Assembly: GCA_963705915.1 (NCBI GenBank)
Contig: OY970126.1
Location: 687,893-751,892, forward strand
Origin: an uncultured bacterium
GTDB lineage: Bacteria > Patescibacteriota > Minisyncoccia > UBA6257 > 2-01-FULL-56-20
DNA: 64,000 bases
Direction of reading: 5' to 3'
Made by a program: the position numbers and the translations under genes. Below, one piece after another: positions 796 to 51,066 of the stretch. The notes beneath the pieces were generated by a model. That model was given only the letters and a program-made list of their open reading frames with translations. It was not told where the DNA came from and searched no databases. How positions within the stretch are numbered: position 1 is the stretch's first letter; every line of letters begins with the position of its first letter.

Positions 796-2142
796 ATGAA
801 GCTTACTTTTTGCGGCGGCGTGGGCGAAGCGACCGGCGCGAACTATATTCTCGAATCTGGCAAGACGAAAGTTATGGTTGATTGCGGCCTCCATCAAGGC
901 AGCCACTATGCCGAACGCGAGAACTTTGATCCGTTTCCCTATGATCCGCAGAGTATTGATGCGGTATTTATCACGCACTCCCATCTCGACCACATCGGCC
1001 GGCTGCCGAGTCTTGTAAAAGCCGGGTTCAAGGGCGTCGTCTATTCAACGACGGCCACGCGCGACGTTGCTGAGCTCATGTTGCTCGACTCGGAGCATTT
1101 GCTCTCAAAAGAAGCTGAACGTGAAAAGCGTCCGGTGCTTTACGACGATAAAGATATTGAACGCGTGATGGCTCAGTGGCGTGGCCTTGATTATCACGAG
1201 CAGGTTACGGTTGGAGATTTCACCGCCGATCTTTTCGACGCTGGCCACATCCTCGGTTCGGCGATTGTGCGCTTGCAAGCAGAAGGGAAGACTATTGTGT
1301 TCTCTGGCGATCTTGGCAACACGCCGGCACCGATTATTCAGCCAACCGAAACACTCAAAGAAGCTGACTACTGTCTCATCGAATCAACCTACGGAGACCG
1401 AGTCCATGCGAACGTCGATGATCGTCGCGAGATGCTCGAAGACGCGGTTGAAGACACGGTGAAGGCCGGCGGCGTTCTCATGATCCCGACGTTCGCCATG
1501 GAGCGCACGCAAGAATTGCTTTATCACCTCCATCAATTGTTCCAAGAAGGCCGCATTCCGAGGGTTCCGGTTTTTATCGACAGCCCGCTCGCGATCAAAC
1601 TCACGGCGGTATACAAAAAGCACGAAAGCTACTTCAACCCAGTCACACGTCATATCGCGGCCAAAGGGGACGACATTTTGAATTTCCCGGGACTTCGCCT
1701 CACGCTCACCACGGAGCAATCAAAAGAGATTAACGACGTTCCACCGCCAAAAATTATCATCGCCGGTTCCGGCATGTCGAACGGCGGCCGCATTCTACAT
1801 CATGAATCGCGATATCTTTCCGATCCAAAGAGCGAGATTATCTTCGTTGGCTATCAGGCGCAAGGTTCACTCGGACGCGAGATCCTCGACGGGGCAAAGG
1901 AGGTGAAGATTTTTGGCGAGACCGTTCCTGTGCGGTGCCGCATGGTAAACATCCCGGGGTATTCCGCGCATGCCGACCAGCCGCGTTTGCTCGCATGGCT
2001 CGAGCCGATGAGGCGGACGCTCAAAAAAGTTTTCGTGGTGCAAGGGGAGCAGCAATCGAGCGAAGTCCTGGCTCACAAAATCGTGGACGGCCTCGCCGTA
2101 TCCGCCGAAGTTCCAAAACCGGGAGAGAGCGTGACGCTCTGA
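796..2142 (+). CDS. beta-CASP family MBL-fold ribonuclease (RNA-metabolising metallo-beta-lactamase)
   Basis: HSHLDHIG metal-binding motif, N-terminal MBL fold, ~450 aa typical of bacterial beta-CASP RNases. Confidence 0.85.
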   Translation: MKLTFCGGVGEATGANYILESGKTKVMVDCGLHQGSHYAERENFDPFPYDPQSIDAVFITHSHLDHIGRLPSLVKAGFKGVVYSTTATRDVAELMLLDSEHLLSKEAEREKRPVLYDDKDIERVMAQWRGLDYHEQVTVGDFTADLFDAGHILGSAIVRLQAEGKTIVFSGDLGNTPAPIIQPTETLKEADYCLIESTYGDRVHANVDDRREMLEDAVEDTVKAGGVLMIPTFAMERTQELLYHLHQLFQEGRIPRVPVFIDSPLAIKLTAVYKKHESYFNPVTRHIAAKGDDILNFPGLRLTLTTEQSKEINDVPPPKIIIAGSGMSNGGRILHHESRYLSDPKSEIIFVGYQAQGSLGREILDGAKEVKIFGETVPVRCRMVNIPGYSAHADQPRLLAWLEPMRRTLKKVFVVQGEQQSSEVLAHKIVDGLAVSAEVPKPGESVTL

Positions 2143-4465: not shown

Positions 4466-6573
4466 TTATTGTATCTTTATCTCATCGAACTGGACGTAGC
4501 CGGGGAATTGGATCGTCGTCGTATTTAATATCCCGACGCCGAGATTGAAAAACATATTGCTCGTGTCGCTCCATGAGACGGTTGTGCTCGCGAATTGCGT
4601 GAAGTTCACGCCGTCAGAAGAATACAAATATGAGAACACGCCTCCGGTATCGCTTATCTTCCAATATAACGTGGTAGTGGGGGAATACGGTATGCTGTTT
4701 GCAACGACGATGCCGGCACCTTCTTGGTACGTTGCGTAGAGCGAGCCCGAATACGGATAGAGCGAAACATTATGCGCGTTGTCAGTGCCGACTTCCATAT
4801 ACGGATAGGTTGCATTCGTGCCGGGCGAAATCGTCATTTGTGCGCGTACTGAAAGTGAATGGCCTCGGAAACTGTTTGACGGAGCGTTTGTCAAAAATCC
4901 ATTGATACTGCCGGGATTGAGCGACGTATAACTGCCCGGCGGCGTTATGGTAAGCACTTGCCCCGCTTGCATCGCTGCAATGTTCTTGTCTGTTCCGTTG
5001 CTTGCTTCCTGGATTTGTCCTTCCCACCAGGTTGTATTCGCAAGGTCGGTCGCGTGTTGTTGGATGGGATTCAAAACGACCGACATCGCTCCGCTCGTGA
5101 GCGGCGTCGGCGGCGCGAGCGTGGTCGTAGGCGGACGCATATAATAGTTGATCACGCCGTAAATGAGGTTGTTCGGGTCGTTTATGTCGTCGAGCGTGCT
5201 GTACCAGCTTGTTTGGTCATGCTCGATATCGATCATGAGATTTACTGAACCACCCACCGTGCTGCTTATGGGTGCGACGGGATAGACCGTTGCTTCAATG
5301 TCGGCGTCGCCGTAAATCATGTGGCCGGAAGGACTGCTTCCACCGCCAGGCCAGACGCTTGCGCTGTCGTTGCCAATGAGAAGTCCGTATTCTTCGTAGC
5401 CTAATTTCACATCAGAAAGGAAGGCGTGGTCGTAGGCTTCGAGGCCGTGATAGTAACCCCATATTCCAAGATCAACGGCGTTTGACTGGTTGTAATTTCC
5501 AACGAAAGGCATCCTATAGCCGATGCCGTTTGCGTGCGTTGGGGCCGATGGCGGGATGCCGCCGGTATCAATGATGGAGTCTTCCACGGTGCAACCGCCG
5601 ATGTAGCCGCAGTCGACGGCGATGATGTTCGGGTTTTGCGGCGTACGGATTGTGAGGTTCTGCCAGGTCGCATAGATGTTCGTGAATGCCGTGCTCGCGC
5701 TGCCGTTGCCGTTGCTGCCGCTGCCCCCAAAGAAGCTGCCGGAATCTTCTTGAGTTTGGATGATGGCATCCGAACCCGCAGAGCCGCTCCAGTTAAGGGC
5801 TGCCGGCTGCGTTCCTTCGAAAACGATTGAAGGCCATGGGTTTACGAAAAGGCTGCTCGTGCCGCCGTCGACCGTCGGGAGTTTGATGATCGAGCTGTTG
5901 CCGCCGCATTCGCCTGCAAAGGACCGTTCACGTTATATACGCCGCTCGGGAATATAATTGCGCCGCCGGTCACCGAAAGTGCGTTGACAGCCGATTGAAT
6001 TGCGTTTGTCTCGTCGTGCTGGACGGCCGTGCCGTTTGATACACCGGTACTCACAGCGGGCGAGACGGTCAGCGTGTTACCGTTCACTGCCGTGACCGTA
6101 CCGATATAATTTGCGCCAGATGTTCCGGCGCCGGCAATATAAATGCCTTCATTAGCGGAGAAGCTGCTGCCGTCCGCAACAACAACTGTCGTTGTTCCGG
6201 ATGAAAGCGAGCCGCTCACCGTTGTCGTGGTTGCAGAGCCAGAAGCATAATAAGGAGCGGCTGTGACGTCGATCGTGTGCGCTGGTGCCGCTGCGGAGGA
6301 TTGCGTCGTCCCGTCCGCGAACGTGATCGTGCCGCTCACCGATAGTGATCCCGGGAATGTCACGGGTTCGCCGGTTCTGCCGATTGTGACAGCGGTCGCG
6401 CTCGCATTGCCGATATAGATCGTGCGCGCGCCATCAATTGTGATATTGGAATCGCTCGTGATACCATTCGCATTGAAAATGATCGCCGCCATGGCAACGG
6501 AAACACCAACGGTGAGGAGGGTGATGGTTGCAGAAACAAGAAATGTTCTAAGTTTTCTCGAACGAAGATTCAT
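4466..6573 (-). pseudogene. secreted pectate-lyase-fold (right-handed beta-helix) protein, ~700 aa, interrupted by one frameshift near 5915-5925
   Basis: ORF 5842..6573 (signal peptide, SAVNALSVTGGAIIFPSGVYNVNGPL motif) continues in another frame through ...IIKLPTVDGG... into ORF 4466..5587; the shift is at a ccttt/gg run. Confidence 0.55.
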
Positions 6574-15922: not shown

Positions 15923-16232
15923 GGGGACGATCGGTTTTGATGGATTGAAGCGATGGGTTTGCGAGCCGAGCGCGCGTGCGTTACAGCGCATCATTTATAA
16001 CTGCCAACTCTAATCGAGTTACAGCTCCAGCATACGCTTTCGCGTAAGTTGGGATCGGCCAGCCAGGGTCTCTTTGGCTGATACCGGTCTTATATAAGGA
16101 GACTCAAGTTCGCGAGGACGATTCTAGTCGCGGAACAAAAACCAAGAATCATTCGTTAGCTTTCGCTATCTACGCTCGTAGACGGCCCACTCGATTTCCT
16201 TCCAGACGGCAGTTCGATTCTGCCCGTCTCCA
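15923..16232 (+). ncRNA. ssrA: tmRNA (transfer-messenger RNA)
   Basis: 5' GGGGACG pairs with 3' CGTCTCC-A giving a G3:U70 wobble (alanine identity); T-arm GGCAG-TTCGATT-CTGCC; internal TGCGAGCCGAG...TATAACT|GCC region parallels the B. subtilis tmRNA resume region; tag ORF from GCC 16003 to TAA 16047 encodes ANSNRVTAPAYAFA. Confidence 0.8.
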
Positions 16233-16589
16233 CTTTATAGAAGGTCTCTTCGTCGGTCAACTTTTCATGCTTGCCGTTCGGATATTCCATGCCACTCCAC
16301 TTGATCCAACCGATGGAGGGTAGAGCTGAAAGACATGGATTTTCCCGTGCTTCCGCTAAAACCCGTTTTCCAGATACGAAGGAGAATCGGTGAAAGCTTT
16401 GTTGACGAAAGTGAGTTCTACTGGGCTCTTTCTTCGCCGACGCGGCGCGACCATTTTGAGCGTTGCCTCAAAGAATTTCGCGGGAGAAAGTAGTCCGTTT
16501 TCGGCGGCCAGCCACAACTGGTCGCCGTTTTTGTCTTGTCCCAGCGTCAAGCATTTCTGCCTGAGAGAGGGAATTGTTAAGATACAGAG

Positions 16590-32890: not shown

Positions 32891-35800
32891 ATGGCCGACG
32901 AACCGAAGCAAGAATTCAATCTCGCCAAGCTCGAAGAAAAAACGCTGGCGTCCTGGAATGAACACCATATTTTTGAAAGAAGTTTAGCGCAAACGGAAAA
33001 CGGCAAACCGTTCACGTTTTATGACGGTCCGCCTTTTGCGACCGGTCTGCCGCACTATGGCCACATTCTGGCCTCTACTATTAAAGACGTCGTGCCGCGT
33101 TACCAGACGATGCAAGGCCGCTACGTACGACGGCGCTGGGGTTGGGACTGTCATGGCCTGCCAATAGAAGAGATTGTTGAGCGTAAGCTTGGTATCTCAG
33201 GAAAAAAGCAAATCGAGGAAATCGGCATCAAGAAATTCAACGAGACATGCCGCAGTATGGTCTTGCAATACGTGTCCGAGTGGCGCGACATGGTCAACCG
33301 CATCGCGCGATGGGTTGATTTTGATAATTCGTATAAGACGATGGACACCGATTATATGGAATCGGTATGGTGGGCGTTCAAACAAATTTACGACAAAGAT
33401 CTCATCTACGAAGGGCGAAAAGTATTGCTGTATTGTCCGCGCTGCGAGACACCGCTTTCGAATTTTGAAGTCGCGATGGATAACAGTTATAAAGATGTGA
33501 GCGAAGAGTCGGTTTTTGTGAAGTTCAAAGTGAAGCCGGCACAAAAAATCGGACAGCATGTGGTTCGCGAAGACGACAAAATATATATGCTCGCATGGAC
33601 CACGACGCCGTGGACGTTGCCGGGGAACGTGGCGCTCGCCGTCGGCAGAGACGTCTCCTATGCGGTTGTCGATATGGATGGGGAAAAGTTAATTCTCGCA
33701 AAAGCGCTCATCGAAAAAGTTTTTCATCACGACATGGTGATTGAGCACGAGATCAAAGGATCGGATCTCGTTGGGCTCGCCTACGAGCCGTTGTTCGTCG
33801 TTGGCGCGGTGCAGGCAGATGAAAACGCCGAGCGGGCATTCAAAGTGTATGCCGCCGATTTTGTGACCACGGACGAAGGCACGGGCATCGTGCATACCGC
33901 CGTTGTCTATGGGGAAGACGACTACGCCCTCGGCGTGCGTGAACATTTGCCTGTCGTCCCGCTTCTCAATGAACAGGGGGTATTTAATGAAAAAGCACCG
34001 GAATTAGTCCGCGGACAATATTTCAAAAAAGCCGATCCGATTGTGATAGAAAATCTGCGCGAACGCGGTCTGCTATTCAGAAAAGAACTCCACACGCACT
34101 CATATCCGTTTTGCTGGCGTTGCGGAACCACCCTCTTCTATAACGCGATTCCGGCATGGTTTGTGAACGTGCAAAAAATAAAGCCGCAGCTTTTGAAGTC
34201 GAATGATAAGGAGGTCAATTGGTATCCGGAACATCTCAAACACGGCCGTTATGAAAAGAGCGTCGAAGCCGCGCCCGACTGGAATATTTCCCGCAATCGC
34301 TACTGGGGCAATCCCGTGCCGGTTTGGAAATGTGAAAAGTGCGAAGATGAAGTCGTCATCGGCAGTCTCGATGAACTCTCGAAGCACGCTGGCGGTGTAA
34401 AAAATAATTACTGGGCTATGCGTCATGGCGAATCGGAAAATATTATCTTTAAACTTCTCGACTCTGGCGACCAACATTTCCACCTCACCCCTCTTGGTAG
34501 AGAGCAGATCGCAAAAGCCGCAAAAAAATTGAAATCGGATAAGATCGATCTTGTTTTCTCGTCTGACCTTGAGCGCACCAAAGAAACTGCTGAGATCATA
34601 GAAAAAGAGATAGGCGTTCACGTCCATTTCGACAAGCGTCTCCGTGAGATGAATTTCGGAAACCTTTCGGGTAAGCCTGCGGCGGTATACACATCAGCCT
34701 TTCCAAGGCAGGAGAGTCGTTTTGAGGGAAAAGTTGAACCTGCGGGTGAATCGCTCCGCGATGTCCGTACGCGGGTGTGGGATTTTCTCCGTGAGATGGA
34801 AGAAAAACATCACGGCAAAAATATTTTGATTATAAGTCACGCGGATCCTATATGGATGCTGTCGCAGATTGCCTATGGCTGGAGTGAAAAAGAAACAGCG
34901 GCCAAAAAAGACGACGAGAAAGGCTTCATGGAACCGGGTGAGATACTCAAGCTTCCCGTAAAAAATATCCCCCGCAACGACACAGGCGCTGCCGATATGC
35001 ACCGTCCCTACATCGATGAAATAACATTCCCATGTTCCAATAAAAAGTGCGATGGCACCATGACGCGCACGCCGGAGATTTTTGATTCATGGATGGAAGC
35101 CGGCTCGATGCCATTCGCCGAATATCATTATCCGTTGGAAAATAAAAAAGTTTTCGAGAACCGATTCCCGGCGCAGTTTGTCGCCGAATATATTGCCCAG
35201 ACACGGGCATGGTTCTATGTGATGCACGTGAATTCGCAGATTTTATTCGGCCATGCCCCATTCGAAAATGTGGTGACGACGGGCACCATTCTCGCCGAAG
35301 ACGGATCGAAGATGAGCAAATCAAAAGGCAATTTCCCTGACCCCAAAATCGTGATCGACAAATACGGTGCGGACAGTCTCCGGTTCTATCTCATGAATTC
35401 CGTGGTGATGCAGGCCGACAACCTCAATTTTTCCGAGCAAGCCGTCGCGACCGTCTATCGAAAAGTCGCGCTCATCCTTTGGAACGTCGCAAAATTCTTT
35501 ACGACGTATGTTGAGCCAAGCGATCTCGTATTGGAAAAAATGGGCAAAGCCGCCACCGGAAGCTCTGTACCAGAAAACATCCTCGATCAGTGGATCACGG
35601 TGCGCACCAATGATCTCATCCGCACGGTCACGGGCAGTCTCGACGGCTATGACACCGTCCGCGCCACGCGCGCAATCCAGGAATATATTGATGATCTTTC
35701 GACGTGGTACCTTCGCCGGAGCCGCAAGCGAAAAGATCCAGGGTTCGTCGGCACGTTTTACACAAGCCTCATGACGGCTGCAAAAGTGATCGCGCCATTC

Positions 35801-36424
35801 ATGCCGTTCCTCGCCGACGAACTGTACACAGCGCTCAAACCCTATAGCCACGGCATAGGATCCGCAGAATCCGTCCATCTCACTGAATGGCCAACGGCAG
35901 ATAAGCAAAAAAATAAAGCTGCCGACGAGGCGTTGCTCGCGGACATGGCCGAAGTGCGCCGCCTCGCAAGTCTCGGACTTGGATTGCGTTCCGATGCAAA
36001 GATAAAAGTGCGACAGCCGCTCGCATCGATCACGATAAAAAATGCACAGCTCTCGCACGAACTGTCCGTGATCCTCGCCGAAGAGGTGAATGTGAAGCAG
36101 GTGAAAGTTGATGAAAAAATGGCCGACGAAATTTTACTTGACACGGCGATCACCGCTGAGCTTCGTGAAGAAGGTTTACTTCGCGAACTCATCCGCATGA
36201 TCCAAGGACTTCGCCAAGAAGCCGGCCTCGAACCGAAAGATGCCATTGCCGTGTTCGCAGAGCTTTCCGGCGACATCAAGTCCGCCGTCGAGCGCAACGC
36301 AGAATTTCTGAAAGACGAGGTGAACGCCGAATCACTTGACTACAAGCGATCGGATAACGTGAAAGCCCAAGAAGAAGCAAAAATCGACGGCGAGAACGTT
36401 TGGTTTGGGATTAGGAAGGCTTAG
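32891..36424 (+). CDS. ileS: isoleucine--tRNA ligase carrying an internal ~200-aa histidine phosphatase (PGAM-family) domain insertion
   Basis: class I ligase with HYGH, CP1 editing domain and KMSKS; between the conserved VIGSLDEL and HRPYIDEI...DSWMEAG blocks the ORF encodes AMRHGESEN ... LTPLGREQ ... FSSDLERTKETAEII ... ISHADPI, i.e. both catalytic His motifs of the RHG phosphatase superfamily. Confidence 0.9.
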   Translation: MADEPKQEFNLAKLEEKTLASWNEHHIFERSLAQTENGKPFTFYDGPPFATGLPHYGHILASTIKDVVPRYQTMQGRYVRRRWGWDCHGLPIEEIVERKLGISGKKQIEEIGIKKFNETCRSMVLQYVSEWRDMVNRIARWVDFDNSYKTMDTDYMESVWWAFKQIYDKDLIYEGRKVLLYCPRCETPLSNFEVAMDNSYKDVSEESVFVKFKVKPAQKIGQHVVREDDKIYMLAWTTTPWTLPGNVALAVGRDVSYAVVDMDGEKLILAKALIEKVFHHDMVIEHEIKGSDLVGLAYEPLFVVGAVQADENAERAFKVYAADFVTTDEGTGIVHTAVVYGEDDYALGVREHLPVVPLLNEQGVFNEKAPELVRGQYFKKADPIVIENLRERGLLFRKELHTHSYPFCWRCGTTLFYNAIPAWFVNVQKIKPQLLKSNDKEVNWYPEHLKHGRYEKSVEAAPDWNISRNRYWGNPVPVWKCEKCEDEVVIGSLDELSKHAGGVKNNYWAMRHGESENIIFKLLDSGDQHFHLTPLGREQIAKAAKKLKSDKIDLVFSSDLERTKETAEIIEKEIGVHVHFDKRLREMNFGNLSGKPAAVYTSAFPRQESRFEGKVEPAGESLRDVRTRVWDFLREMEEKHHGKNILIISHADPIWMLSQIAYGWSEKETAAKKDDEKGFMEPGEILKLPVKNIPRNDTGAADMHRPYIDEITFPCSNKKCDGTMTRTPEIFDSWMEAGSMPFAEYHYPLENKKVFENRFPAQFVAEYIAQTRAWFYVMHVNSQILFGHAPFENVVTTGTILAEDGSKMSKSKGNFPDPKIVIDKYGADSLRFYLMNSVVMQADNLNFSEQAVATVYRKVALILWNVAKFFTTYVEPSDLVLEKMGKAATGSSVPENILDQWITVRTNDLIRTVTGSLDGYDTVRATRAIQEYIDDLSTWYLRRSRKRKDPGFVGTFYTSLMTAAKVIAPFMPFLADELYTALKPYSHGIGSAESVHLTEWPTADKQKNKAADEALLADMAEVRRLASLGLGLRSDAKIKVRQPLASITIKNAQLSHELSVILAEEVNVKQVKVDEKMADEILLDTAITAELREEGLLRELIRMIQGLRQEAGLEPKDAIAVFAELSGDIKSAVERNAEFLKDEVNAESLDYKRSDNVKAQEEAKIDGENVWFGIRKA
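34397..34993 (+). other. in-frame histidine-phosphatase (phosphoglycerate-mutase-like) domain inserted within ileS
   Basis: bounded by IleRS-conserved sequence on both sides; contains RHGE and SHA catalytic motifs. Confidence 0.7.
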
Positions 36425-38981: not shown

Positions 38982-39890
38982 TTATTCCTCGCCGATCTTT
39001 AAATTGGATTTTATTTCTTGGATGAGGGTTGTGTAATCGGCTGCGCTTGAGATCCTACTAAGTTCTTTTTCCAATTGACTTGCGATAGATGGCCTTAGCG
39101 TATGTGTTTTAAGATAGTCTCTTATTTCTCCTAGTCTCGCCGGTATTCGCCAATCATTTTTTTTGTTTATGTCAGTCTTAAGTAATTCTATCCTGTTTAT
39201 TATTGCTCCCTGTTGTCCTTTCTTTTCGTATTTTTCGACTTCCAATTCTTTCACGTCAACATCCAGTTCATCAGTTCTATATATTAAGTTTTCTATTTTA
39301 CTTTCTAATTTTGTATTGTAATTTACAGTAGTTTTTTCGAGAGCAGAAATTTTTTCTAGCAATTTACTCTCGAAGGTTAGCATTTCATTTTTTAAAGTCG
39401 ATTCCAATGATGTTTTCATATTTGCAAACTCTTTTTGATTAAGTGCACTAACTTTGCCTAAGATATTTGCTTCGGCAGATAATATTTCGCCCTTGAGAAT
39501 TCCCATTAGGTCGATTTTCATATTTGCAAACTCTTTTTGATTAAGTGCACTAACTTTGCCTAAGATATTTGCTTCGGCAGATAATATTTCACTTTTTGCT
39601 GTAGAAATAACATCTTCTTTTATTCTTTCAATTTCTCGCTTGTTTCCACTTATGTTGAAATATAAATTTACCGAAATCAAAGCGACGAAAATAGTAGCAA
39701 GGATCCCAAGAGTCCAGTAAACAGAATTTAGAGTCTGACTATTGATGACTTGTAAAAGGTCTACTTTAGCGGCGAGAATCTCCAAGTTGTCTGTCGAAGT
39801 TGTTTGAGCGAAGACTTTTGATGGAATGATAGATAAAAAAAGACTTGATAGGAGCAAGCCTTTAATTAATCGTATATACTTATATTTCAT
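38982..39890 (-). CDS. AT-rich signal-peptide/TM-anchored coiled-coil protein with internal tandem repeat
   Basis: signal peptide, one TM helix, long coiled-coil; EILSAEANILGKVSALNQKEFANMK occurs twice. Confidence 0.55.
   Translation of the reverse strand: MKYKYIRLIKGLLLSSLFLSIIPSKVFAQTTSTDNLEILAAKVDLLQVINSQTLNSVYWTLGILATIFVALISVNLYFNISGNKREIERIKEDVISTAKSEILSAEANILGKVSALNQKEFANMKIDLMGILKGEILSAEANILGKVSALNQKEFANMKTSLESTLKNEMLTFESKLLEKISALEKTTVNYNTKLESKIENLIYRTDELDVDVKELEVEKYEKKGQQGAIINRIELLKTDINKKNDWRIPARLGEIRDYLKTHTLRPSIASQLEKELSRISSAADYTTLIQEIKSNLKIGEE
39413..39590. repeat. two copies of a 76-bp perfect direct repeat with 102-bp period (in-frame duplication inside the coiled-coil gene)
   Basis: copy 1 about 39413-39488, copy 2 about 39515-39590; identical sequence ttttcatatttgcaaactctttttgattaagtgcactaactttgcctaagatatttgcttcggcagataatatttc. 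Confidence 0.8.
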
Positions 39891-39899
39891 AAAGTTTTC

Positions 39900-41944
39900 C
39901 TATATCTCAATAATCACCGGCAATATCATCGGACGCCGCTTCGTCTTCGTGTACAAATATTGCCCGACCTGGTCGCGGATCAGGGTCTTCAGATAATCAG
40001 GTTCAACTTCGCGGTAGTTCGGCATCCGAGTGCATGAGTCCGCGGATGCGCTTGCGGATTTCATCGAGGATCTCCTGATTTTCTTTGAGGTAGATAAAGC
40101 CGCGCGAGATGATGTCGGGATTTTTGAGGACGCGGCCTTTGTCGCGGTCCATCGTGAGGATGATGACGATCATGCCTTCGGCGGCGAGCGCGCGGCGGTC
40201 GCGCAAGACGACTTCTTCAACGTCGCCAACGCCGAGGCCGTCTACCATCACGTAGAAGGCGGGGACTTCCTCGCTCGTGACCAAAAATTTTCCCGGCGTG
40301 AGTTCGGCGACCTGGCCGTTGTCCATGAGGATGACGTTTTCTTTCGGGATGCCGACTTCCTGGGCGGAATGGCCGTTCGCGGCGCGCATGAAGTAGTAGC
40401 CGTGCACCGGCACCAAGAATTTCGGCTTGATGAGTTTCATGACGAGCTTCAAGTCGTCTTTCGGCGCATGGCCGGATGAGTGGATGTCGACGAGCGCCGA
40501 GTGATACACCGATCGCGCCTTGGCGCGCGAGATTATCTTTCACGCTTTGCACGCTGCGTTCGTTGCCCGGAATGATGGATGACGACAAGACGAACGTGTC
40601 GCCGGGCTTGATCTTGATGTGCCGGTGTTCGCCGTTGATCATCTTCATGAGGCCGGCGTTCGATTCGCCTTGCGCGCCCGTCGAGAGGATCATGATTTTC
40701 TCATCTTTATACTTCGCCACTTCCTCAACGGAAATGATCGTGCCTTCTTTCGCTTTCACAAAGCCAAGCTTTGCGCGATCTGGATGTTCGTTTTCATCGA
40801 ATAGCCGTTGAGCGCCACTTTGCGCCCGAGTTTTTCGGCGATCTTGATGATCTCCGCGATGCGCGTGAGGAGCGATGCGAATGTTGCGACGATGATGCGG
40901 CCTTCTGCTTTCGCTGAAAATTTCTTCAAGATTGCGCTCCACGGTTTTTTCGGAAACGGAGTGGCCGGGTTTTTCGGCGTTCGTGCTGTCTACCATAAAG
41001 CTGTGAATGCCCATCTTGCCGATACTTTCGAATTCTTCGAGGCCTTGCGGTTCGCCCTCGTCGTTGTAGTCAACGCGAAAGTCGGCGAAGTGCACGATGT
41101 TGCCTGCAGGCGTTTTCATCAAAACGCCCGTCGTTTCGGGAATCGTGTGCGGCACGCCGAAGAAGACGCGCGCCAAAGTTCGGCGAAATTTTCACTTCGG
41201 TCGCCATTCTTTACCGTGATCACATTCATCTTCGGCGAGTTCGGAAAATCTTCCTGCCGTTTTTCGATGATCGCTTTCGTGATCGATGTCGCGTAGATCG
41301 GGGGATTGCCGAGGCGTGCGAGCAAGTGCGGCAACGCGCCGATATGGTCGTAGTGGCCGTGCGTCAAAATGATCGCCGGCGATATTTTCTTTTTTCTTTT
41401 CGAGATATTGGATGTTCGGGATGATGTAGTCGATGCCCGGCGTTTCGTCTTCGGGGAACTGCAACCCGACGTCGATGATGACGATTTCATTCTTATATTC
41501 GAGGAACATGCAGTTGCGGCCGACTTCTTCGAGGCCGCCGAGCGGCACAAAACGGACCGCGTCCGGATTCGGTTTGATTGCTGCGGCGCCTCCGGCGCTT
41601 TCCTGCGCGACAAGCGATTTCGACGGGCCGAATTTCCCCGCGCTCGAAGCTTTCACGGCGCCGGGGTGTCCGCCCGGCATACGATCGCGTCGATCCCGGC
41701 GTGGGCGTTTTGGTCCGCCCGGTCCGCCTGGACCGCGTTCGCGCGAAGGACGTTCACTTGGCGCGTCGCCAGGCGCCGTCTTGCGCGAAGGTTCATCGGC
41801 GGGCCTTTTCGGCTTTTGTTCCGCAGGCGCTCCGGGCTTTGGCCGCGGCCGGATTGTGGGCGGCTTTATCCGCGGCCGCTCCAAAGGAGCCGTCGCGTTG
41901 TGTGGTGCTGCGTTTTGCAGCTCATTGCTATCAGTTTTTTTCAT
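39900..41944 (-). pseudogene. rnj: ribonuclease J, reading frame broken by at least six +/-1 frameshifts; N-terminal Pro/Arg-rich low-complexity extension
   Basis: RNase J-homologous segments (GIDYIIPNIQYL / IILTHGHYDHIG / KFRRTLARVFFGVPHTIPETTG...NIVHFADF / KAEGRIIVATFAS / ILSTGAQGE...SSSIIPGNE / DIHSSGH...KPKF / LYTKTKRRPMILPVIIEI) alternate between minus-strand frames near 41375-41400, 41175-41185, 40910-40927, 40757-40775, 40505-40515 and 40010-40035; at least two shifts sit in homopolymer runs (gaaaa/ttt at about 41175-41185; aaaaagaaaa run at about 41375-41400). Confidence 0.7.
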
Positions 41945-41983
41945 AGTCGCTATGTAATTGTTTTTATTAATTTTTAATCTTTG

Positions 41984-42067
41984 TGCCGAGGAGGAGATTC
42001 GAACTCCTATGACCTTGCGGTCGCTGGTACCTGAAACCAGTGCGTCTGCCAGTTCCGCCACCTCGGC
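41984..42067 (-). tRNA. tRNA-Leu (anticodon CAG), type II with long variable arm
   Basis: manual cloverleaf on the reverse complement: acceptor GCCGAGG/CCTCGGC, anticodon stem CTGGT/ACCAG with loop TTCAGGT, variable arm GACC-GCAA-GGTC, T-arm AGGAG-TTCGAAT-CTCCT, discriminator A. Confidence 0.8.
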
Positions 42068-42258
42068 AGGAAAACGAACATCAAAACTAAGCCTTGTGGC
42101 TCAGTTCTTTTCTCGAGGAAACAGGTTTCATTTCGATTGCGGGAAGAAGGAGGGTTTGTCTTGGAAATTAGAGTATAGCATGGCGTTCATTAAAAAGTCA
42201 AGACATTAAAAAATTATTGAGATAGAGTTGACTTTATTACGCATGGCAATAGACTGTA

Positions 42259-42313
42259 GATATGCCCGCGGGATGACTAATCCCCTTCGGCATATCGCTG
42301 AAGCGGGCATATC
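42259..42313. repeat. 11-bp perfect inverted repeat gatatgcccgc ... gcgggcatatc flanking a 33-nt spacer
   Basis: read directly; lies between tRNA-Leu and DUF4258-like paralog B, abutting the terminator. Confidence 0.5.
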
Positions 42314-42340
42314 AAAAAACACCCGGAAAGGTGTTTTTTG
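42314..42340. terminator. bidirectional intrinsic terminator aaaaaacacc-cggaaa-ggtgtttttt
   Basis: A-run / stem / T-run; 6 nt from the stop of gene 42346..42699. Confidence 0.65.
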
Positions 42341-42345
42341 ATATG

Positions 42346-42699
42346 TTAATAGATGCTAAGAAAATGCTTACTGTCACCCTCAAACTGCCTGATAACCACA
42401 GTCACTTTTTGGCTGCGGATAGTCTTCTTGAAAGCCCAAAATTCTCCTCTCGATATTTTTATCTTTCTTGACTTGGACCGACCGACGAAACGAGCAATTC
42501 CTTCTGCTCTTCTGTAAGAAAATATTGCATTCGGATCGGTGACTATATCTTTCGCATAACGAAGAAGTCGAAATCTTCTTTTTCGCTCACGTGCTGGCCG
42601 TCGAATGCCTCGTTTACGGATAAGATGTCGTAGGCCGATGCTGTTAAAGATGATGTAGTCATGTAGTTTTGGACACCAAATGCGGCTTGGAAATTTCAT
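42346..42699 (-). CDS. small basic protein, paralog B of the two-member family; tentative DUF4258-like
   Basis: homologous to ORF 13656..14123; 117 aa, pI strongly basic; a 7-bp-arm palindrome taatgacatgaccgtcatta lies just upstream (about 42706-42725). Confidence 0.5.
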   Translation of the reverse strand: MKFPSRIWCPKLHDYIIFNSIGLRHLIRKRGIRRPARERKRRFRLLRYAKDIVTDPNAIFSYRRAEGIARFVGRSKSRKIKISRGEFWAFKKTIRSQKVTVVIRQFEGDSKHFLSIY

Positions 42700-46263: not shown

Positions 46264-47805
46264 ATGGCGAAGAAGACAACGGTTCTTATTATTCTCGATG
46301 GCTGGGGCATCGGGGCGAACAACGAATCGAACCCCATTTATATAGTGAAGCCGCAAACATTTGAGTGGCTCGCCAAAAATTATCCGGTGACGAGCTTGCA
46401 GGCGTCGGGAATTGCCGTCGGTTTGCCGTGGGGCGAAGTCGGCAACAGTGAAGTGGGCCACCTCACGCTCGGTGCGGGCAAAGTGCTCTATCAGTACTAT
46501 CCCAAGATCACGATGGCGATCCGCGACGGAACTTTTTTGGAGAACACCGTTCTTAAAGAAGCGTTCGCACATGTGAAGAAAAATAATAGTGCGATCAATT
46601 TTGCAGGATTACTCTCAAAAGGAAATGTGCATGCTTCGATTGAACATCTGGTGGCGCTCATTACGATGGCCGAGTCGGAAGGGATAAAAAATATCAACCT
46701 GCATCTTTTTGCTGACGGCAAAGATACGCCGCCGCATTCGCTCGGAGGATTTTTAAAAGAGATTCCAAAAGAATATCTTGCAACACTCATCGGCCGCTAC
46801 TATGCGATGGACCGCAACGGTAACTGGCGGCTCACGGAAACAGCGTATCAGACGATGACAGGGCAGCTCGGCCCGCTCGTCACCGATCCAACGCCGCTTA
46901 TCGACGCCACGTACAAGCAGGGATCGACGGAAGAATATTTGCCGCCGATGCGTTTTGCGGATGACAAGAAAATAAAAGACGGCGACTCGCTCATATTTTT
47001 TAATTATCGCGAAGACAGTATCCGCCAGATCGCGTCGTCTTTTATCACGAAGCCGTTCGACAAGTTTGCAACCACCCTGCCATTCAACGATTTGTTCATC
47101 GCGACGATGACGCATTACGACGATTCGTTCAATGTGCCTGTGATCTGCGAAGCGGACAAGGTAACCGTGCCGCTTGGCAAAGTGTTGAGCGACAAAGGCC
47201 TCGCGCAATTGCGCATTGCGGAGACCTACAAGTATGCACACGTCACGTATTTCTTTAATGGTCTCCGCGAACCGCCGTACCCCGGCGAATACCGCACGCT
47301 CGTGCCGTCGAATTCGAGCCTTCATCCCGAAGAACATCCCGAGATGATGGCGAGCGCGATCACCGATCGGTTGATCGAAGCGATTCACAGCAAAGGATTC
47401 GCCTTTATTTTAGTGAACTATGCGAATCCCGATGCGATTGCGCACACCTCGGATTACAATGCGTCGCTTGAGGCCGTGCGCGTGATTGACCGAGAAATCG
47501 ATCGGGTGGTCAAGGCGATTGGAGATGATCCGGAAGTTTTGCTCGCGATCACATCCGACCACGGCAACATTGAAGAGATGATCGATATCATGACTGGCCT
47601 CCCGGAGAGCCAGCACGATCCGAGTCCGGTGCCGCTTTATCTTGTGGCCCCGGAATATAAGGGCCGAAAATTCGTGAACGCCGATTCGCTCGTCGGGGAA
47701 AGCCTCGGTTCGCTTGCCGACGTCACGCCGACCCTGCTACAGATTATGGGTATTGAAAAACCGCCCGAAATGACGGGGGAAAGCCTTCTCGAAGGCCTCG
47801 TTTAG
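46264..47805 (+). CDS. gpmI: 2,3-bisphosphoglycerate-independent phosphoglycerate mutase
   Basis: LIILDGWGI ... SEVGHLTLGAG ... ITSDHGN motifs, 513 aa. Confidence 0.95.
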   Translation: MAKKTTVLIILDGWGIGANNESNPIYIVKPQTFEWLAKNYPVTSLQASGIAVGLPWGEVGNSEVGHLTLGAGKVLYQYYPKITMAIRDGTFLENTVLKEAFAHVKKNNSAINFAGLLSKGNVHASIEHLVALITMAESEGIKNINLHLFADGKDTPPHSLGGFLKEIPKEYLATLIGRYYAMDRNGNWRLTETAYQTMTGQLGPLVTDPTPLIDATYKQGSTEEYLPPMRFADDKKIKDGDSLIFFNYREDSIRQIASSFITKPFDKFATTLPFNDLFIATMTHYDDSFNVPVICEADKVTVPLGKVLSDKGLAQLRIAETYKYAHVTYFFNGLREPPYPGEYRTLVPSNSSLHPEEHPEMMASAITDRLIEAIHSKGFAFILVNYANPDAIAHTSDYNASLEAVRVIDREIDRVVKAIGDDPEVLLAITSDHGNIEEMIDIMTGLPESQHDPSPVPLYLVAPEYKGRKFVNADSLVGESLGSLADVTPTLLQIMGIEKPPEMTGESLLEGLV

Positions 47806-47900
47806 CTCAAAATCGGTTGACCAATCGGCTCTCTGCCGTTATTATATCAATATCAAAAGTCATTAAAAAATTATGAAATCAGTAGCTAGTAATTACTCAT

Positions 47901-49427
47901 ATGGATACCACCACGTGGATTGTGGCGGTTATTGCCGTTTGTATCGGCATTGCCGCAGGATATGCAGCGCGAAAGTATTCGTCGGCTAGAAAACTCGGCG
48001 GGGTAGAAGAACAAATTAAAAAAAGTTTGGCCGATGCGGAAACGCATGCCAAAGAAATAGTCATTGAGGCAAAAGACAAGGCCGCCTCACTTTTGGTTGA
48101 ATTGAAAAACGAAGAGAAAGATCGTCGCAAGGAAATCGACGAACTTGAGAAGCGCGTTTTGCAGCGTGAAGAATCGTTCGACAAGAAATTGAATGATCTC
48201 ACGACCGAGCAGGGGAAAGTGCGCACCCATGAAGACGCTTTGAAGGTGCGCGAGACTGATCTTGAGAAAAAAGAAAGCGAGATTGGTTCACGGATAGAGA
48301 AAGTTGCCGGCCTCTCCATGGCCGAAGCCCGTGAAGAAATTTTCCGCCGCGCAAAAGAAGACCGTTCACAAGATTTGGCCCAGCTCATCCAAAAGATGGA
48401 TCGCGAGAACCGCGAAGAAATTGAAAAGAAAGCTGCGGACATCATCACGACTGCGCTCCAGCGCTATGCCCGATCGCATGTTGCCGAAATCACGACGACC
48501 ATCTTCCCGCTTCACGACGAAGAATTGAAAGGCAAAATCATCGGACGGGAAGGCCGCAATATACGCGCGCTCGAACGCGCAACGGGTGTTGAGTTCATCA
48601 TCGACGAGGCACCGGATGCCATCATCATTTCATCGTTTGATCCGTATCGCCGCGAAGCCGCGCGCCTCGCGCTTGAAAAACTCGTGAAAGATGGGCGTAT
48701 CCAGCCGGCGAAGATCGAAGAAAAAGTGGAAGAAGCGAAAGCCGAACTCAACAAGCGCGCGCAGGAGATTGGCGAACAAGCCGCGCAAGATCTCGGCGTT
48801 TTCGATCTGCCAAAAGAAATCTTACAGCTCTTGGGCAGGCTTCATTTCCGCACGAGCTTTGGACAGAACGTGCTCGTCCACTCGATTGAGATGGCCTACA
48901 TTAGCGAAATGATGGCACGCGAACTCGGCTTGAATGCCGAAGTGGCAAAGAAAGGCGCATTGCTTCACGACATTGGCAAAGCTATCGACCACGAAGTGGA
49001 AGGAACGCACGTGGACCTCGGTATGAAGCTGCTCAAAAAATATAATATCGACGAGCGCGTGATCGAGGCGATGCAGTCCCACCATGAAGATTTCCCATAC
49101 GCACGGCCCGAGGCCTACGTGGTGACGGCCGCCGACGTCCTTTCCGCCGCGCGTCCCGGCGCCCGCCGCGGCACGCTCGAAACGTACGTCAAGCGTTTGG
49201 CTGACCTCGAACGGATCGCCGGCGAATTCCCGGGCGTGAAGAACGCCTATGCGATCGCCGCCGGCCGCGAACTTCGGGTCTTTGTTGTTCCGGAAAAGAT
49301 CGACGACTTCCGGGCTCTGGAACTCGCCCGCGAGATTGCCAACAAAATCCAAGCGGAACTCAAATATCCCGGCGAGATTAAGGTCAATGTGATTCGGGAG
49401 ATCAGAGCAGTGGAGTACGCGAGGTAG
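47901..49427 (+). CDS. rny: ribonuclease Y
   Basis: N-terminal TM helix, coiled-coil, KH domain (GREGRNIRALE) and HD domain (LLHDIGKA). Confidence 0.9.
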   Translation: MDTTTWIVAVIAVCIGIAAGYAARKYSSARKLGGVEEQIKKSLADAETHAKEIVIEAKDKAASLLVELKNEEKDRRKEIDELEKRVLQREESFDKKLNDLTTEQGKVRTHEDALKVRETDLEKKESEIGSRIEKVAGLSMAEAREEIFRRAKEDRSQDLAQLIQKMDRENREEIEKKAADIITTALQRYARSHVAEITTTIFPLHDEELKGKIIGREGRNIRALERATGVEFIIDEAPDAIIISSFDPYRREAARLALEKLVKDGRIQPAKIEEKVEEAKAELNKRAQEIGEQAAQDLGVFDLPKEILQLLGRLHFRTSFGQNVLVHSIEMAYISEMMARELGLNAEVAKKGALLHDIGKAIDHEVEGTHVDLGMKLLKKYNIDERVIEAMQSHHEDFPYARPEAYVVTAADVLSAARPGARRGTLETYVKRLADLERIAGEFPGVKNAYAIAAGRELRVFVVPEKIDDFRALELAREIANKIQAELKYPGEIKVNVIREIRAVEYAR

Positions 49428-49550
49428 TCCGGACGCTGGCATTCTGAGGTCCTTTCGGACCTGGGGCGAGGGAGGAAGTGGCATTTCCAAACTGGGAAGA
49501 GGCGCCGACCGAGGTTGGTCCGAAAGACCCAGAATGCCACGGACGGACGA
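49428..49550 (+). other. about 120-nt structured element: long imperfect inverted repeat, each arm containing its own perfect 4-bp mini-hairpin
   Basis: left arm tggcattctgaggtcctttcggacc (49437-49461) vs right arm ggtccgaaagacccagaatgcca (about 49517-49539); flanked by gtccggacg / cggacggac. Confidence 0.4.
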
Positions 49551-49587
49551 CTTGCAAACTATTACGATATGATATACTAAATCGCAT

Positions 49588-51066
49588 ATGGCCGACTCAA
49601 TATTTAATTATCCCCTCGTAACCTCTGTTATCGCTGCGCTCTTTCTCGTCGGTATCGTCGGCAAGTTCCTCAAGTTTTCCTGGAAGCAAATCACTAAGTG
49701 GTATCTTTATATCTCCGTTTTGGCGGTGGTTGTCGTGATGGACTCGATTTTCTTCCCGTTCATCGGCGGCAAAGACTGGTTCTTCCGCTTCTCAACGGAA
49801 CTCGCACTCATCTCGGCTCTTCTCTATTGGGCATTCGAAGCAAAGAAAGATGAGATAAAAAATATTATCAAGACAAGCTATAAGAAGCCGATCGTCATCG
49901 CAGTAACCGTTTTCGTTGCCGCATTCTTGCTTGCATGCGCATTTGCGCTCGATGCCCACGCGGCGTTCTGGTCAAACTATGAGCGCGGTGAAGGCGGCTT
50001 CCAGATGCTCCACTATTACCTCTTCTTCATATTGCTTGTGATGTTCCTCACGGAGGCAGAGGACTGGAAGAATATCTTTAGATTTTCACTTGTTGCCGCT
50101 GGCCTCATGATCGGCTACGGTATTCTCGGCAATTATTCCATCGGCGGATTCATCGGCCCCTATGCAGGAAGCACGCCCCCGGTCGGCTGGCTTCATACGT
50201 TGATCGACGGCCGCTTCCAGGGCTCGCTTGGCAATCCGGCCTACGTCGCCCCGTATTTAATATTCTCGATGTTCTACGCAGCGTACCTTTGGATCATGGC
50301 AAAGCGTGAAGGCCGCGCGACCAAGATCACCGCGTGGGCTTATAGCGTTCTTCTCGTCATATTCTTGTTCTTCTTTATCCTCACGCAGACCCGCGGCACG
50401 TTCCTCGGCCTTGGCGCAGGTATTGTTGCGCTTCTCCTGTATTTCGCATTCACCGGTACGGCAAAGGTAAAGAAATGGGCTGCGGCGATTGCTATCGTGC
50501 TTGTCATCTTGGGTATCGGCGCATATGCCGAACGCAACAGTTCGTTCGTCCAGAATTTGCCGGAAGGCCGCCTGCTGCAAATCAGCTTGTCGGATACCAC
50601 AGTGCAAACGCGTTTATGGGTATGGGGCGAGGCGTGGCAGGGCTTCCTTGAGCGCCCGATCTTTGGCTGGGGTCCGGAAAACTTCACGGCTGTCTACGAC
50701 AAATTCTTCAATCCGAAGTTCTACACGCCGGGGCAGAATAACGAAACCTGGTTTGATCGCGCCCATAGCATTTTCTTCGACTATCTCTCCGAGACTGGCA
50801 TTGTTGGTTTACTCGCATACCTTTCGATCTTCGTTATGATTTTCTGGGAGTTTTTCCGCCGCAAACAGCTGCACTCGCGGGGTGACGGTACATCGCTCAC
50901 CATCCTGCGCGGAGCCATGCTCGCGGTGCCGATCGCGTATCTTGTACAAGGCATAGCGATTTTTGATGTATTTCCGATGTACATCAATTTGTTCCTCTTC
51001 TTTGCGTTTGCATCGTATTACTTCTCGGCGCACCCCCACGAAAAATCTGCGCATACTACTTCATAA
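49588..51066 (+). CDS. O-antigen ligase / Wzy_C family polytopic membrane protein
   Basis: about 12 TM helices with a Wzy_C-like periplasmic loop (QTRGTFLG...). Confidence 0.7.
   Translation: MADSIFNYPLVTSVIAALFLVGIVGKFLKFSWKQITKWYLYISVLAVVVVMDSIFFPFIGGKDWFFRFSTELALISALLYWAFEAKKDEIKNIIKTSYKKPIVIAVTVFVAAFLLACAFALDAHAAFWSNYERGEGGFQMLHYYLFFILLVMFLTEAEDWKNIFRFSLVAAGLMIGYGILGNYSIGGFIGPYAGSTPPVGWLHTLIDGRFQGSLGNPAYVAPYLIFSMFYAAYLWIMAKREGRATKITAWAYSVLLVIFLFFFILTQTRGTFLGLGAGIVALLLYFAFTGTAKVKKWAAAIAIVLVILGIGAYAERNSSFVQNLPEGRLLQISLSDTTVQTRLWVWGEAWQGFLERPIFGWGPENFTAVYDKFFNPKFYTPGQNNETWFDRAHSIFFDYLSETGIVGLLAYLSIFVMIFWEFFRRKQLHSRGDGTSLTILRGAMLAVPIAYLVQGIAIFDVFPMYINLFLFFAFASYYFSAHPHEKSAHTTS

Follow-up and report, generated by a model that had tools for sequence, protein, structure and literature searches.

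Does the bacterium behind this locus carry a decayed RNase J gene, or does the deposited sequence misrepresent an intact one? The source is a Paceibacteria (Patescibacteria) bacterium, and the window (the whole 64-kb stretch of DNA analysed here) carries a minus-strand region whose pieces translate to RNase J, although no single uninterrupted reading frame spans it as deposited. The initial annotation of the locus held that a naive reading as four to five fragmentary ORFs is wrong, and with good reason: the first fragment has indeed been deposited as a separate 250-aa protein. Our conclusion is that the frameshifted rnj is not a real biological feature and that the gene is an ordinary rnj. Judged from its sequence it is very probably functional, and its seven 1-nt frameshifts would be errors of the deposited consensus, not of the organism.

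A frameshift-aware alignment of the DNA to the proteins of four intact homologs (84-89% identical) required seven shifts of one base each, namely six insertions and one deletion spread between 41380 and 40030, with no stop codon inside any correct-frame segment (Table 1). This bears out the earlier count of at least six +/-1 frame switches without a premature stop. When rnj is aligned at the nucleotide level with 22 relatives, only the window sequence carries an additional base at six of the sites and lacks one at the seventh, and blastn of rnj against the closest genome gives seven gap openings and seven gap positions over 1665 nt. The bases given for the seven shifts derive from these frameshift-aware and 22-relative alignments and from a later refinement of the positions. 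Two sites had been described differently. In place of the single missing A proposed for gaaaa(a)ttt at 41175-41185 there are two +1 insertions, one near 41199 and one near 41167, on either side of the in-frame EVKISPNFGA, and a shift placed in an A-run at about 41375-41400 lies in GCCGGCG, 3' of that run and not inside it. Base runs at the shift sites do not exceed 2-3 nt, so that these are not the classic homopolymer miscalls first suspected; the lesions are mostly +1 in G+C-rich, non-homopolymer contexts.

Table 1. Features of the rnj locus and the second broken gene, in window coordinates.
Feature	Position	Strand	Remarks
rnj conceptual CDS	39900..41944	-	2045 nt deposited (2040 + 5); 2040 nt (679 aa + stop) once six bases are taken out and one is put in
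N-terminal extension coding region	41560..41944	-	Pro/Arg/Gly/Ala-rich, ~129 aa; motif ERPRIKPPTIRPRP; same frame as start of catalytic core
Frameshift 1	41374..41379	-	+1 within GCCGGCG, between ..KKKENI and IILTHGHYDH; base absent in 22/22 relatives
Frameshift 2	41196..41200	-	+1 (CC or AA) after VKNG(D)
Frameshift 3	41167..41167	-	+1 in GCGCGCGTC, before (V/L)FFGVPHTIPE
Frameshift 4	40913..40913	-	+1 in TTCAGCGAAAGC, between NLEEIF and KAEGRIIVATF
Frameshift 5	40763..40770	-	-1 in CAAAGCTTGGCTTT, between NIQIAQ and LGFVKAKEG
Frameshift 6	40509..40510	-	+1 G in ATCGGTG, between ARQGAI and VYHSALVDIHSSGH
Frameshift 7	40032..40033	-	+1 in ATGCACTCGG, between IRKRIRGL(M) and R-M-P-N-Y-R-E-V-E-P-D
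tRNA-Leu(CAG)	41983..42067	-	immediately upstream of rnj; 95.6% identical to copy in closest genome (L001)
Low-GC gene, 302-aa coiled-coil or membrane protein	38982..39890	-	between rnj and trpS; absent from syntenic L001 and L084
117-aa basic ORF	42346..42699	-	between SBP gene and tRNA-Leu; no Pfam match
Frameshift in tailspike / pectate-lyase-like gene 6573..4466	5907..5910	-	one base absent; only other frameshift detected in window

Since all shifts are +/-1 and no segment is closed by a stop, one might imagine that transcriptional slippage or ribosomal +1/-1 frameshifting restores the frame at each site, and the frame changes do recall those of prfB, dnaX and endosymbiont poly-A slippage. 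Unlike these systems, however, the window rnj has seven sites, which would have to be recoded independently within one gene, and it lacks slippery or stimulatory signals: no slippery heptamer, 0-frame stop, rare-codon pause or A/T run of at least 8 nt accompanies the shifts, where runs reach 3 nt at most. None of the sites is conserved, the 22 relatives all being in frame there, and the catalytic HxHxDH motif sits between sites 1 and 2. The initial annotation had likewise seen no obvious programmed-frameshift signals. Programmed recoding is barely conceivable here and can be regarded as effectively refuted already.

Conceptual repair yields a protein that matches the RNase J family model TIGR00649 from end to end (positions 1-546 of 546; 527.9 bits, cutoff 400), a match obtained only after that repair and in agreement with the claim that all segments translate to RNase J. 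Its Pfam domains are Lactamase_B (141-258), RNase_J_b_CASP (346-471), RMMBL (485-516) and RNase_J_C (578-679), that is, a metallo-beta-lactamase with an inserted beta-CASP domain followed by the RNase J C-terminal domain. The catalytic HxHxDH motif is kept as THGHYDH, as are the other metal-binding His and Asp residues of the family, whose reference type is Bacillus subtilis RNase J1/RnjA. Against the RNase J1-specific model the protein scores 602 where the cutoff is 820, and it is therefore assigned to RNase J at family level and not specifically to J1. Its identity to intact Paceibacteria RNase J proteins is 84-89%. B. subtilis-type RNase J is about 555 aa long and has no comparable N-terminal extension, whereas the window protein has about 129 extra N-terminal residues rich in Pro, Arg and Gly (P 19%, A 13%, R 12%, G 11%), besides an ORF that is broken seven times. 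This extension had been put at about 130 aa and called unusual; it exists, but one of at least 60 aa is found in 98 of 118 close homologs, and by comparison with these it is normal for the clade. The cell's product would thus be an intact 679-aa enzyme, with a predicted disordered N-terminal extension ahead of the metallo-beta-lactamase (HxHxDH), beta-CASP and RNase J C-terminal domains.

The initial annotation had left two alternatives, a locally error-rich assembly or a very recent pseudogenisation. In the second of these, rnj was inactivated and has gathered seven small indels, its task being taken over by RNase Y (47901..49427) and by a second, aCPSF1-like beta-CASP/RMMBL nuclease (796..2142). 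In favour of this reading, the deposited sequence does contain the indels, the window encodes both nucleases, the structure of the locus varies (compared with L001 and L084, rnj is flanked by additional genes on either side), and the homolog searches yielded no in-frame copy from this strain. The several disabling frameshifts and fragmentary annotated ORFs also resemble those of pseudogenes that decay by frameshifting. Unlike these, the window rnj shows no relaxed constraint, stops or larger deletions, its lesions are biased towards insertion, and none of the relatives sampled has them in common with it. Mutation-accumulation data show indels to be typically several-fold rarer than substitutions, so that neutral decay with seven indels should also have added tens of substitutions, about one third of them at conserved residues. 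Contrary to this expectation, the repaired protein deviates from 120 homologs at none of 215 invariant columns and at none of the 305 with a conservation of 97% or more, and no stop codon has arisen. At columns conserved to at least 90% it has two deviations in 374, both conservative; among the intact homologs the averages in this conserved-column comparison are 1.6 and 6.3. The dN/dS of rnj relative to the closest genome is 0.068.

The kind of lesion points in the same direction. In bacterial pseudogenes deletions reportedly outnumber insertions and indels vary in size, whereas the spectrum here is error-like: all lesions are 1 nt, and six of the seven are insertions. Similar clusters in the rnj and SBP genes of two assemblies with neighbouring accessions, described below, would in addition need convergent decay of a highly conserved gene. 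Reliance on the other nucleases had been proposed as a consequence of pseudogenisation, and both are present, yet nothing indicates a need to replace RNase J. Given the unchanged conserved columns, the low dN/dS, the 6:1 ratio of insertions to deletions and the recurrence, we consider genuine, very recent inactivation unlikely and favour a locally error-rich assembly.

That the frameshifts belong to the assembly follows from their presence in the public record: one deposited 827,485-bp contig (NCBI and ENA) has entries identical to the 250-aa first rnj fragment, to the SBP protein and to RNase Y. The closest genome, MFD00082.bin.1.43 (loci L001 and L002; ENA analysis ERZ25039454), is a long-read MAG of the Microflora Danica project and has a Flye-style contig name. 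The long-read MAGs of that project were built from Nanopore reads alone, with Flye as assembler and a single Medaka round for polishing (PMC12313526). The authors of that resource themselves checked for Nanopore-associated errors and found their problem cases among MAGs of low coverage and low GC content with many long homopolymers (PMC12313526). From these relatives and from the contig size, we infer that the window's contig behaves like a metagenome assembly made from Nanopore reads with Flye and one Medaka round.

The same locus is hit elsewhere. L084 has four frameshifts in rnj and four in the SBP gene, and L085 has five and one; both are long-contig MAG loci with neighbouring ENA analysis accessions, and their assemblies appear to come from the same Nanopore-only series. 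Their genes for iPGM, RNase Y, TrpRS, IleRS, ArgRS, SmpB, holin and SecG are intact, and their shift clusters lie at positions different from those of the window. Over the three assemblies, +1 insertions make up 17 of 21 shifts; inspection of the contexts at all 21 sites found no common sequence motif. The recurrence expected of a long-read consensus artefact is thus seen in L084, in L085 and in a second broken gene of the window. Elsewhere in the window indels are rare, a single further frameshift being detected over about 62 kb, and all other syntenic genes between 25 and 55 kb give single-frame matches to L001 and L084 proteins. Seven of the eight frameshifts detected in 64 kb fall inside one 1.35-kb stretch, a clustering whose chance under uniform placement is, by our own arithmetic, of the order of 1e-9. 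The window shares with indel artefacts of Nanopore-only MAGs the single-base shifts, the otherwise perfect gene and the recurrence in other long-contig MAGs; it differs from them in that its sites are G+C-rich and non-homopolymeric, insertion-dominated and confined to one or two genes. Long homopolymers, the textbook context of Nanopore error, are not what these sites consist of, an observation that speaks against an artefact.

Why errors should gather in rnj may be explained by its conservation. The gene is the most nucleotide-conserved of the region, with 85% nucleotide identity to L001 against 71-77% for its neighbours and a pS of 0.49 against 0.68-0.81, and amino acid identity of the core RNase J within the clade is 93%. 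The rnj core would accordingly be a local error hotspot in a contig of low indel rate, most likely formed from mixed reads: being the most nucleotide-conserved stretch, it would have recruited reads of co-occurring related Paceibacteria or strains during consensus building or polishing, and complex haplotype differences would have been left half-resolved, for instance where an insertion was retained but the deletion that offsets it was lost. The frameshift junctions fall at codons that differ between the 80 relatives compared, with a mean conservation of 0.60 where the gene as a whole has 0.77 (permutation p ~0.003), which is what a mixed-read consensus would produce. The SBP frameshifts of L084 and L085 are not accounted for by unusual nucleotide conservation, and in this respect they stand against a mixed-read mechanism.

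Several related ideas were tried and set aside. Reading each indel as the retention of both alleles fits the alignments with 22 relatives but is too flexible to count as evidence. A foreign origin of the higher G+C content in rnj was rejected, the GC3 of a relative's rnj being equally high (0.71-0.75). Chimerism with a sampled species found no support: in 120-nt windows, identity to the best relative does not set the window apart from intact controls, which gives no evidence of a mosaic with sampled species, and no stretch in this sliding-window comparison is near-identical to any known relative.

The artefacts might also be real as artefacts and yet have a biological trigger, either DNA modification (e.g. 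a methylated G+C-rich motif) or strain-level structural heterogeneity at tRNA-Leu/rnj. The segment from SBP through tRNA-Leu to rnj is hit in three different MAGs while flanking genes are clean, nearly all sites have CpG-rich contexts, and strain-specific insertions lie on both sides of rnj. A modification motif should, however, act genome-wide and not in two genes only, and the contexts contain no single motif common to all sites; we regard such a trigger as very unlikely indeed. A broader proposal takes the indels as real or biologically triggered and the Paceibacteria SBP - tRNA-Leu - rnj segment as a hotspot, where either insertion-biased mutation repeatedly knocks out rnj in natural populations or structurally heterogeneous or heavily modified DNA systematically defeats the Nanopore consensus in three species. 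This too seems very unlikely. Based on the lack of decay besides the indels, the error-like spectrum, the uniqueness of the lesions, their local clustering and the recurrence in L084 and L085, a local consensus artefact is the reading that we favour.

Among relatives the intact gene is the rule. Comparison with the rnj of relatives had been suggested with the initial annotation; all 22 aligned sequences are in frame at every site, the closest relative in the collections searched has about 89% amino acid identity, and the more distant ones are all in frame. Among the best-scoring matches listed, rnj is in a single frame in 81 of 81 relative loci, a sample biased towards intact genes because only best-scoring matches were kept. 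The best match of the homolog searches was the source's own 250-aa fragment, and searches with the full-length protein, its N-terminal 293 aa or its C-terminal 306 aa found no in-frame protein more than 89% identical. An in-frame copy of this strain's rnj was not found in the collections searched, which is a point against an artefact. A scan of metagenome DNA with a pattern tolerant of frameshifted or repaired sites 2 and 3 gave no matches, and short Logan contigs of two runs (ERR12035941 and ERR11523672), matched via RNase Y, are 100% identical to positions 46531-49988, ending short of rnj. Further exact-protein look-ups, with neighbouring genes and rnj fragments as queries, brought up no source or sister contig. 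A genome scan listed 80 relatives without the source contig, as a fragmented gene gives low-ranking matches.

The locus is therefore best treated in annotation as a single rnj with suspected errors in the sequence; four or five hypothetical ORFs would misrepresent it, and so would an entry for RNase J loss in a reduced Patescibacteria genome. Scoring such cases as pseudogenes would distort inferences on RNA decay and genome reduction for the radiation. Errors in Nanopore-only metagenome assemblies need not be evenly spread or tied to homopolymers; here they cluster in the gene with the highest conservation in the region, and the pattern recurs at the same locus of related MAGs, which suggests that conserved marker genes may be selectively damaged.

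The second broken gene of the window encodes a pectate-lyase-fold protein. It is broken by one -1 shift, as had been claimed, but the site (~5907-5910) lies in gcgAAtgcggc and does not show the proposed cc(c)ttt pattern. Around rnj itself, the naive ORF 41192..42061 reads through tRNA-Leu(CAG). An inverted repeat around rnj and the tRNA (39900-39914 / 42213-42227) was dismissed as a chance-level match, with no rnj relic at its second arm. Pfam searches of the small ORFs neighbouring rnj mostly gave no matches. The low-GC gene between rnj and trpS contains a perfect 76-nt internal direct repeat, and just past the 117-aa basic ORF there is a perfect 16-nt hairpin (42308-42345).

The host genome belongs to the Patescibacteria (Paceibacteria/Paceibacterota), and the best RNase J protein matches in the homolog search are labelled 'Candidatus Paceibacterota'. 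The closest genomic locus (L001) lies on a 913,682-bp contig of the MAG MFD00082.bin.1.43, and is syntenic with the window in the order SecG, SBP_bac_5, tRNA-Leu, rnj, TrpRS, IleRS, ArgRS, SmpB. In the naive ORF list, rnj appears as four or five overlapping fragments.

Frameshift-tolerant protein-to-DNA alignment of rnj against four intact homologs (84-89% identical) required the same seven 1-nt shifts with all four references, with no stop codon within the aligned segments. The initial annotation had proposed at least six shifts, always of one nucleotide and without a premature stop, and this description holds. The gene length (2045 = 2040 + 5 nt) is what six insertions and one deletion would give. 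When the nucleotide sequence was aligned with those of 22 relatives in MAFFT, the window alone had an extra base at six rnj positions and lacked one at a seventh, and blastn against L001 gave seven gap openings and seven gap positions in an alignment of 1665 nt (85% identity). The sites were refined by scoring all possible single-base repairs against a profile of 80 relatives, and none of the seven contains a run longer than 2-3 nt. Two of the contexts described initially were misread. What was taken for a missing A in gaaaa(a)ttt is really two +1 insertions around a short in-frame segment, EVKISPNFGA, that matches (E/D)xK(I/V)SNxFxA of the homologs, and the shift placed within an A-run near 41375-41400 occurs at GCCGGCG, 3′ of that run.

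Features of the window discussed in the text (window positions)
Feature	Position	Strand	Remarks
rnj (RNase J)	41944..39900	minus	encodes RNase J, 2045 nt as deposited
rnj N-terminal extension	41560-41944	minus	coding part
rnj frameshift 1	41374-41379	minus	+1
rnj frameshift 2	41196-41200	minus	+1
rnj frameshift 3	41167	minus	+1
rnj frameshift 4	40913	minus	+1
rnj frameshift 5	40763-40770	minus	-1
rnj frameshift 6	40509-40510	minus	+1
rnj frameshift 7	40032-40033	minus	+1
tRNA-Leu(CAG)	41983-42067		one naive rnj-fragment ORF reads through the tRNA
beta-CASP enzyme	796..2142	+	448 aa, CPSF-type nuclease, Beta-Casp and RMMBL domains
RNase Y	47901..49427		exact protein-collection entry
Tailspike/pectate-lyase-like gene	6573..4466	minus	surface protein
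tmRNA	15923-16235	+	tag peptide ANSNRVTAPAYAFA
IleRS	32891-36424	+	
Gene between rnj and trpS	38982-39890	minus	low GC (~40%), 302-aa product
76-nt direct repeat	39413-39488 and 39515-39590		perfect, spacing 102 nt
Basic ORF and following hairpin	42308-42699		ORF of 117 aa

Programmed frameshifting or transcriptional slippage can be excluded for practical purposes. Recoding would be required at seven sites, and the catalytic HxHxDH motif falls between the first two shifts. The shift sites carry neither slippery motifs nor long A/T runs, in keeping with the initial impression that no such signals were obvious, and none of the seven is kept in any of the 22 aligned relatives.

The initial annotation left the choice between an error-rich assembly and a very recent pseudogenisation, and the evidence favours the former. 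Conceptual repair of the indels yields a CDS of 2040 nt encoding 679 aa. When this protein was aligned with its 120 best homologs it deviated at 0 of 215 invariant columns, 0 of 305 columns at least 97% conserved and 2 of 374 columns with conservation of 90% or more, the two changes being conservative (V to I and R to Q). Intact homologs treated by leave-one-out deviate at means of 0.4, 1.6 and 6.3 columns in these classes, so that the repaired RNase J shows stronger conservation than functional homologs typically do. Its match to the family model TIGR00649 runs from position 1 to 546 of 546 and exceeds the curated cutoff, and its Pfam architecture is as expected for RNase J. Core dN/dS against L001 is 0.068, and genomes that share 46-85% identity in their other genes share 93% amino acid identity in this core. 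Substitutions normally outnumber indels several-fold, so real neutral decay that produced seven indels would be expected to have left numerous replacements as well, and probably a stop. In bacterial pseudogenes deletions predominate and indel sizes vary, and decay should therefore look different from six insertions and one deletion of exactly 1 nt each. With no conserved column among the 305 changed and no stop in the segments, genuine recent inactivation of rnj is unlikely.

The damage is strikingly local. ORFs of L001 and of L084, the corresponding locus of a further long-contig MAG, were compared with the window by tblastn. Between 25 and 55 kb all other shared genes matched in a single frame (BacA, SmpB, ArgRS, IleRS, TrpRS, SBP_bac_5, holin, iPGM, RNase Y, Wzy and epimerases) and only rnj was split; outside the shared region, long intact ORFs cover the window. 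The one other frameshift found splits the tailspike gene, where homologs of 564-794 aa span the two ORFs once a single -1 shift is allowed at ~5907-5910. A break in this pectate-lyase-fold gene had been noted near 5915-5925; it lies close by, as a missing base that does not follow the proposed cc(c)ttt pattern. Seven of the eight detected frameshifts thus fall within 1.35 kb of the 64-kb window.

The protein collection contains the first deposited rnj fragment (250 aa, ...ENIAGDHFDARPL...GKEWRPK) as an exact entry (P0121), and likewise the SBP_bac_5 protein and RNase Y. All three derive from one 827,485-bp NCBI/ENA contig, which places the frameshifts in the public assembly itself. Contigs 100% identical to positions 46531-49988 of the window are present in the Logan assemblies of two runs, ERR12035941 and ERR11523672. 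The strain is thus found in two or more further public read sets, which could be used to verify rnj. Homolog searches returned no rnj product of this strain from them, either in-frame or frameshifted. The contig of the closest relative has a Flye-style name, an ENA analysis accession (ERZ25039454) and a Microflora Danica isolate name; the authors of that catalogue checked it for Nanopore-associated errors (PMC12313526). From its size, source and relatedness, we infer that the window's own contig comes from this or a similar long-read series.

RNase J products cut short were also found on long ENA contigs in the homolog searches, and two such loci were examined. In L084 (ERZ25039480, contig_73288, 588 kb) rnj has two +1 insertions in the core (CC to CCC) and an additional compensating pair of shifts in the N-terminal region, and the adjacent SBP_bac_5 gene has four shifts. 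The second locus, L085 (ERZ25039512, contig_58256, 156 kb), has five shifts in rnj and one in SBP_bac_5. These clusters, mostly +1, lie within 5941-9716 in L084 and 1815-6892 in L085, while iPGM, RNase Y, TrpRS, IleRS, ArgRS, SmpB, holin and SecG are single-frame in both. Across the three assemblies +1 insertions make up 17 of 21 shifts; the positions of the shifts differ, and apart from them the proteins align perfectly. Pseudogenisation would here need convergent decay of one of the clade's most conserved genes, which is very hard to believe, and a recurrent artefact of one assembly type is easy to believe. The SBP_bac_5-rnj locus resembles a recurrent hotspot of errors, a hotspot of mutation being less likely. 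The window's indels are absent from the 22 aligned relatives, and the genome collection yielded 81 relative loci, every one with an intact rnj; this set is biased towards intact genes, and many of its contigs bear names in MEGAHIT or SPAdes style.

Why rnj should be affected may relate to its conservation. It is the most nucleotide-conserved stretch of the region, with 85% identity to L001 against 71-77% for its neighbours, and a synonymous difference (pS) of 0.49 (window 39900-41563 against L001 10289-11947) where all neighbouring genes give 0.68-0.81. Its GC3 is the highest among the genes compared in both genomes (0.75 and 0.71), which accounts for the locally raised G+C and rules out a foreign origin. 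The low pS and the high GC3 together suggest strong codon bias or nucleotide-level selection on rnj in this clade. The frameshift cluster (41380-40030) falls within the conserved block (41563-39900), and no frame change occurs in the coding part for the N-terminus, which is poorly conserved. Within the block, the seven junctions lie at codons that vary among the 80 relatives (mean relative-only conservation 0.60 vs 0.77 gene-wide; permutation p ~0.003). This is the pattern expected if reads of co-occurring related Paceibacteria or strains had been recruited to conserved rnj during consensus and polishing; clustered haplotype differences might then have been settled as an insertion without its matching deletion. 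Several sites can be expressed as such half-applied variants carrying relatives' alleles in the 22-relative alignment, a comparison too flexible to serve as a test, and no part of the sequence proved near-identical to any sampled relative. Conservation does not account for the SBP_bac_5 shifts of L084 and L085. Strain-level structural heterogeneity near the tRNA-Leu locus, or DNA modification, is a possible trigger of the errors.

Taken together, rnj is very probably an ordinary gene whose frameshifts are local consensus errors of a long-read metagenome assembly, the more so when artefacts triggered by modification or heterogeneity are counted in. The biological interest of the frameshifts is accordingly low. 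Annotation as fragmentary ORFs was rightly called wrong, and the locus should be recorded as one gene. Conserved genes are possible error hotspots in Nanopore-only MAGs, where some wariness is advisable.

The N-terminal extension of RNase J, initially described as an unusual ~130 aa rich in Pro/Arg/Gly, is real (~129 aa, Pro/Ala/Arg/Gly-rich, with the motif ERPRIKPPTIRPRP) and usual in this lineage: among 118 close homologs, 98 carry an extension of 60 aa or more (median 101 aa), and the motif recurs in many of them. A conserved short motif in the extension, ERPRIxPPxIRPRP, is common to many RNase J proteins of Paceibacteria and might mediate docking of a partner protein or of RNA. The organism had been supposed to rely on RNase Y and the beta-CASP enzyme; both are encoded, but nothing suggests that either replaces RNase J. 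The top NCBIfam matches of the beta-CASP enzyme, both sub-cutoff, are type VII CRISPR-associated Cas14 (442 bits, cutoff 800) and then archaeal aCPSF1.

Several further features of the region were observed. The gene between rnj and trpS, whose product is a coiled-coil or membrane protein, contains the direct repeat and is missing from L001 and L084. The very basic ORF between the SBP_bac_5 gene and tRNA-Leu has no family match and was not seen in L001; it is followed by a perfect 16-nt hairpin, flanked on each side by T/A runs, that looks like a bidirectional terminator. Rfam matches in the window comprise the tmRNA and two tRNAs only. The window IleRS is 46% identical to that of L001 (13113-16682) and 63% to that of L084. 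IleRS of this clade is ~1180 aa long, and in three relatives precomputed annotation places a His_Phos_1 (histidine phosphatase) match within the tRNA-synt_1 region.
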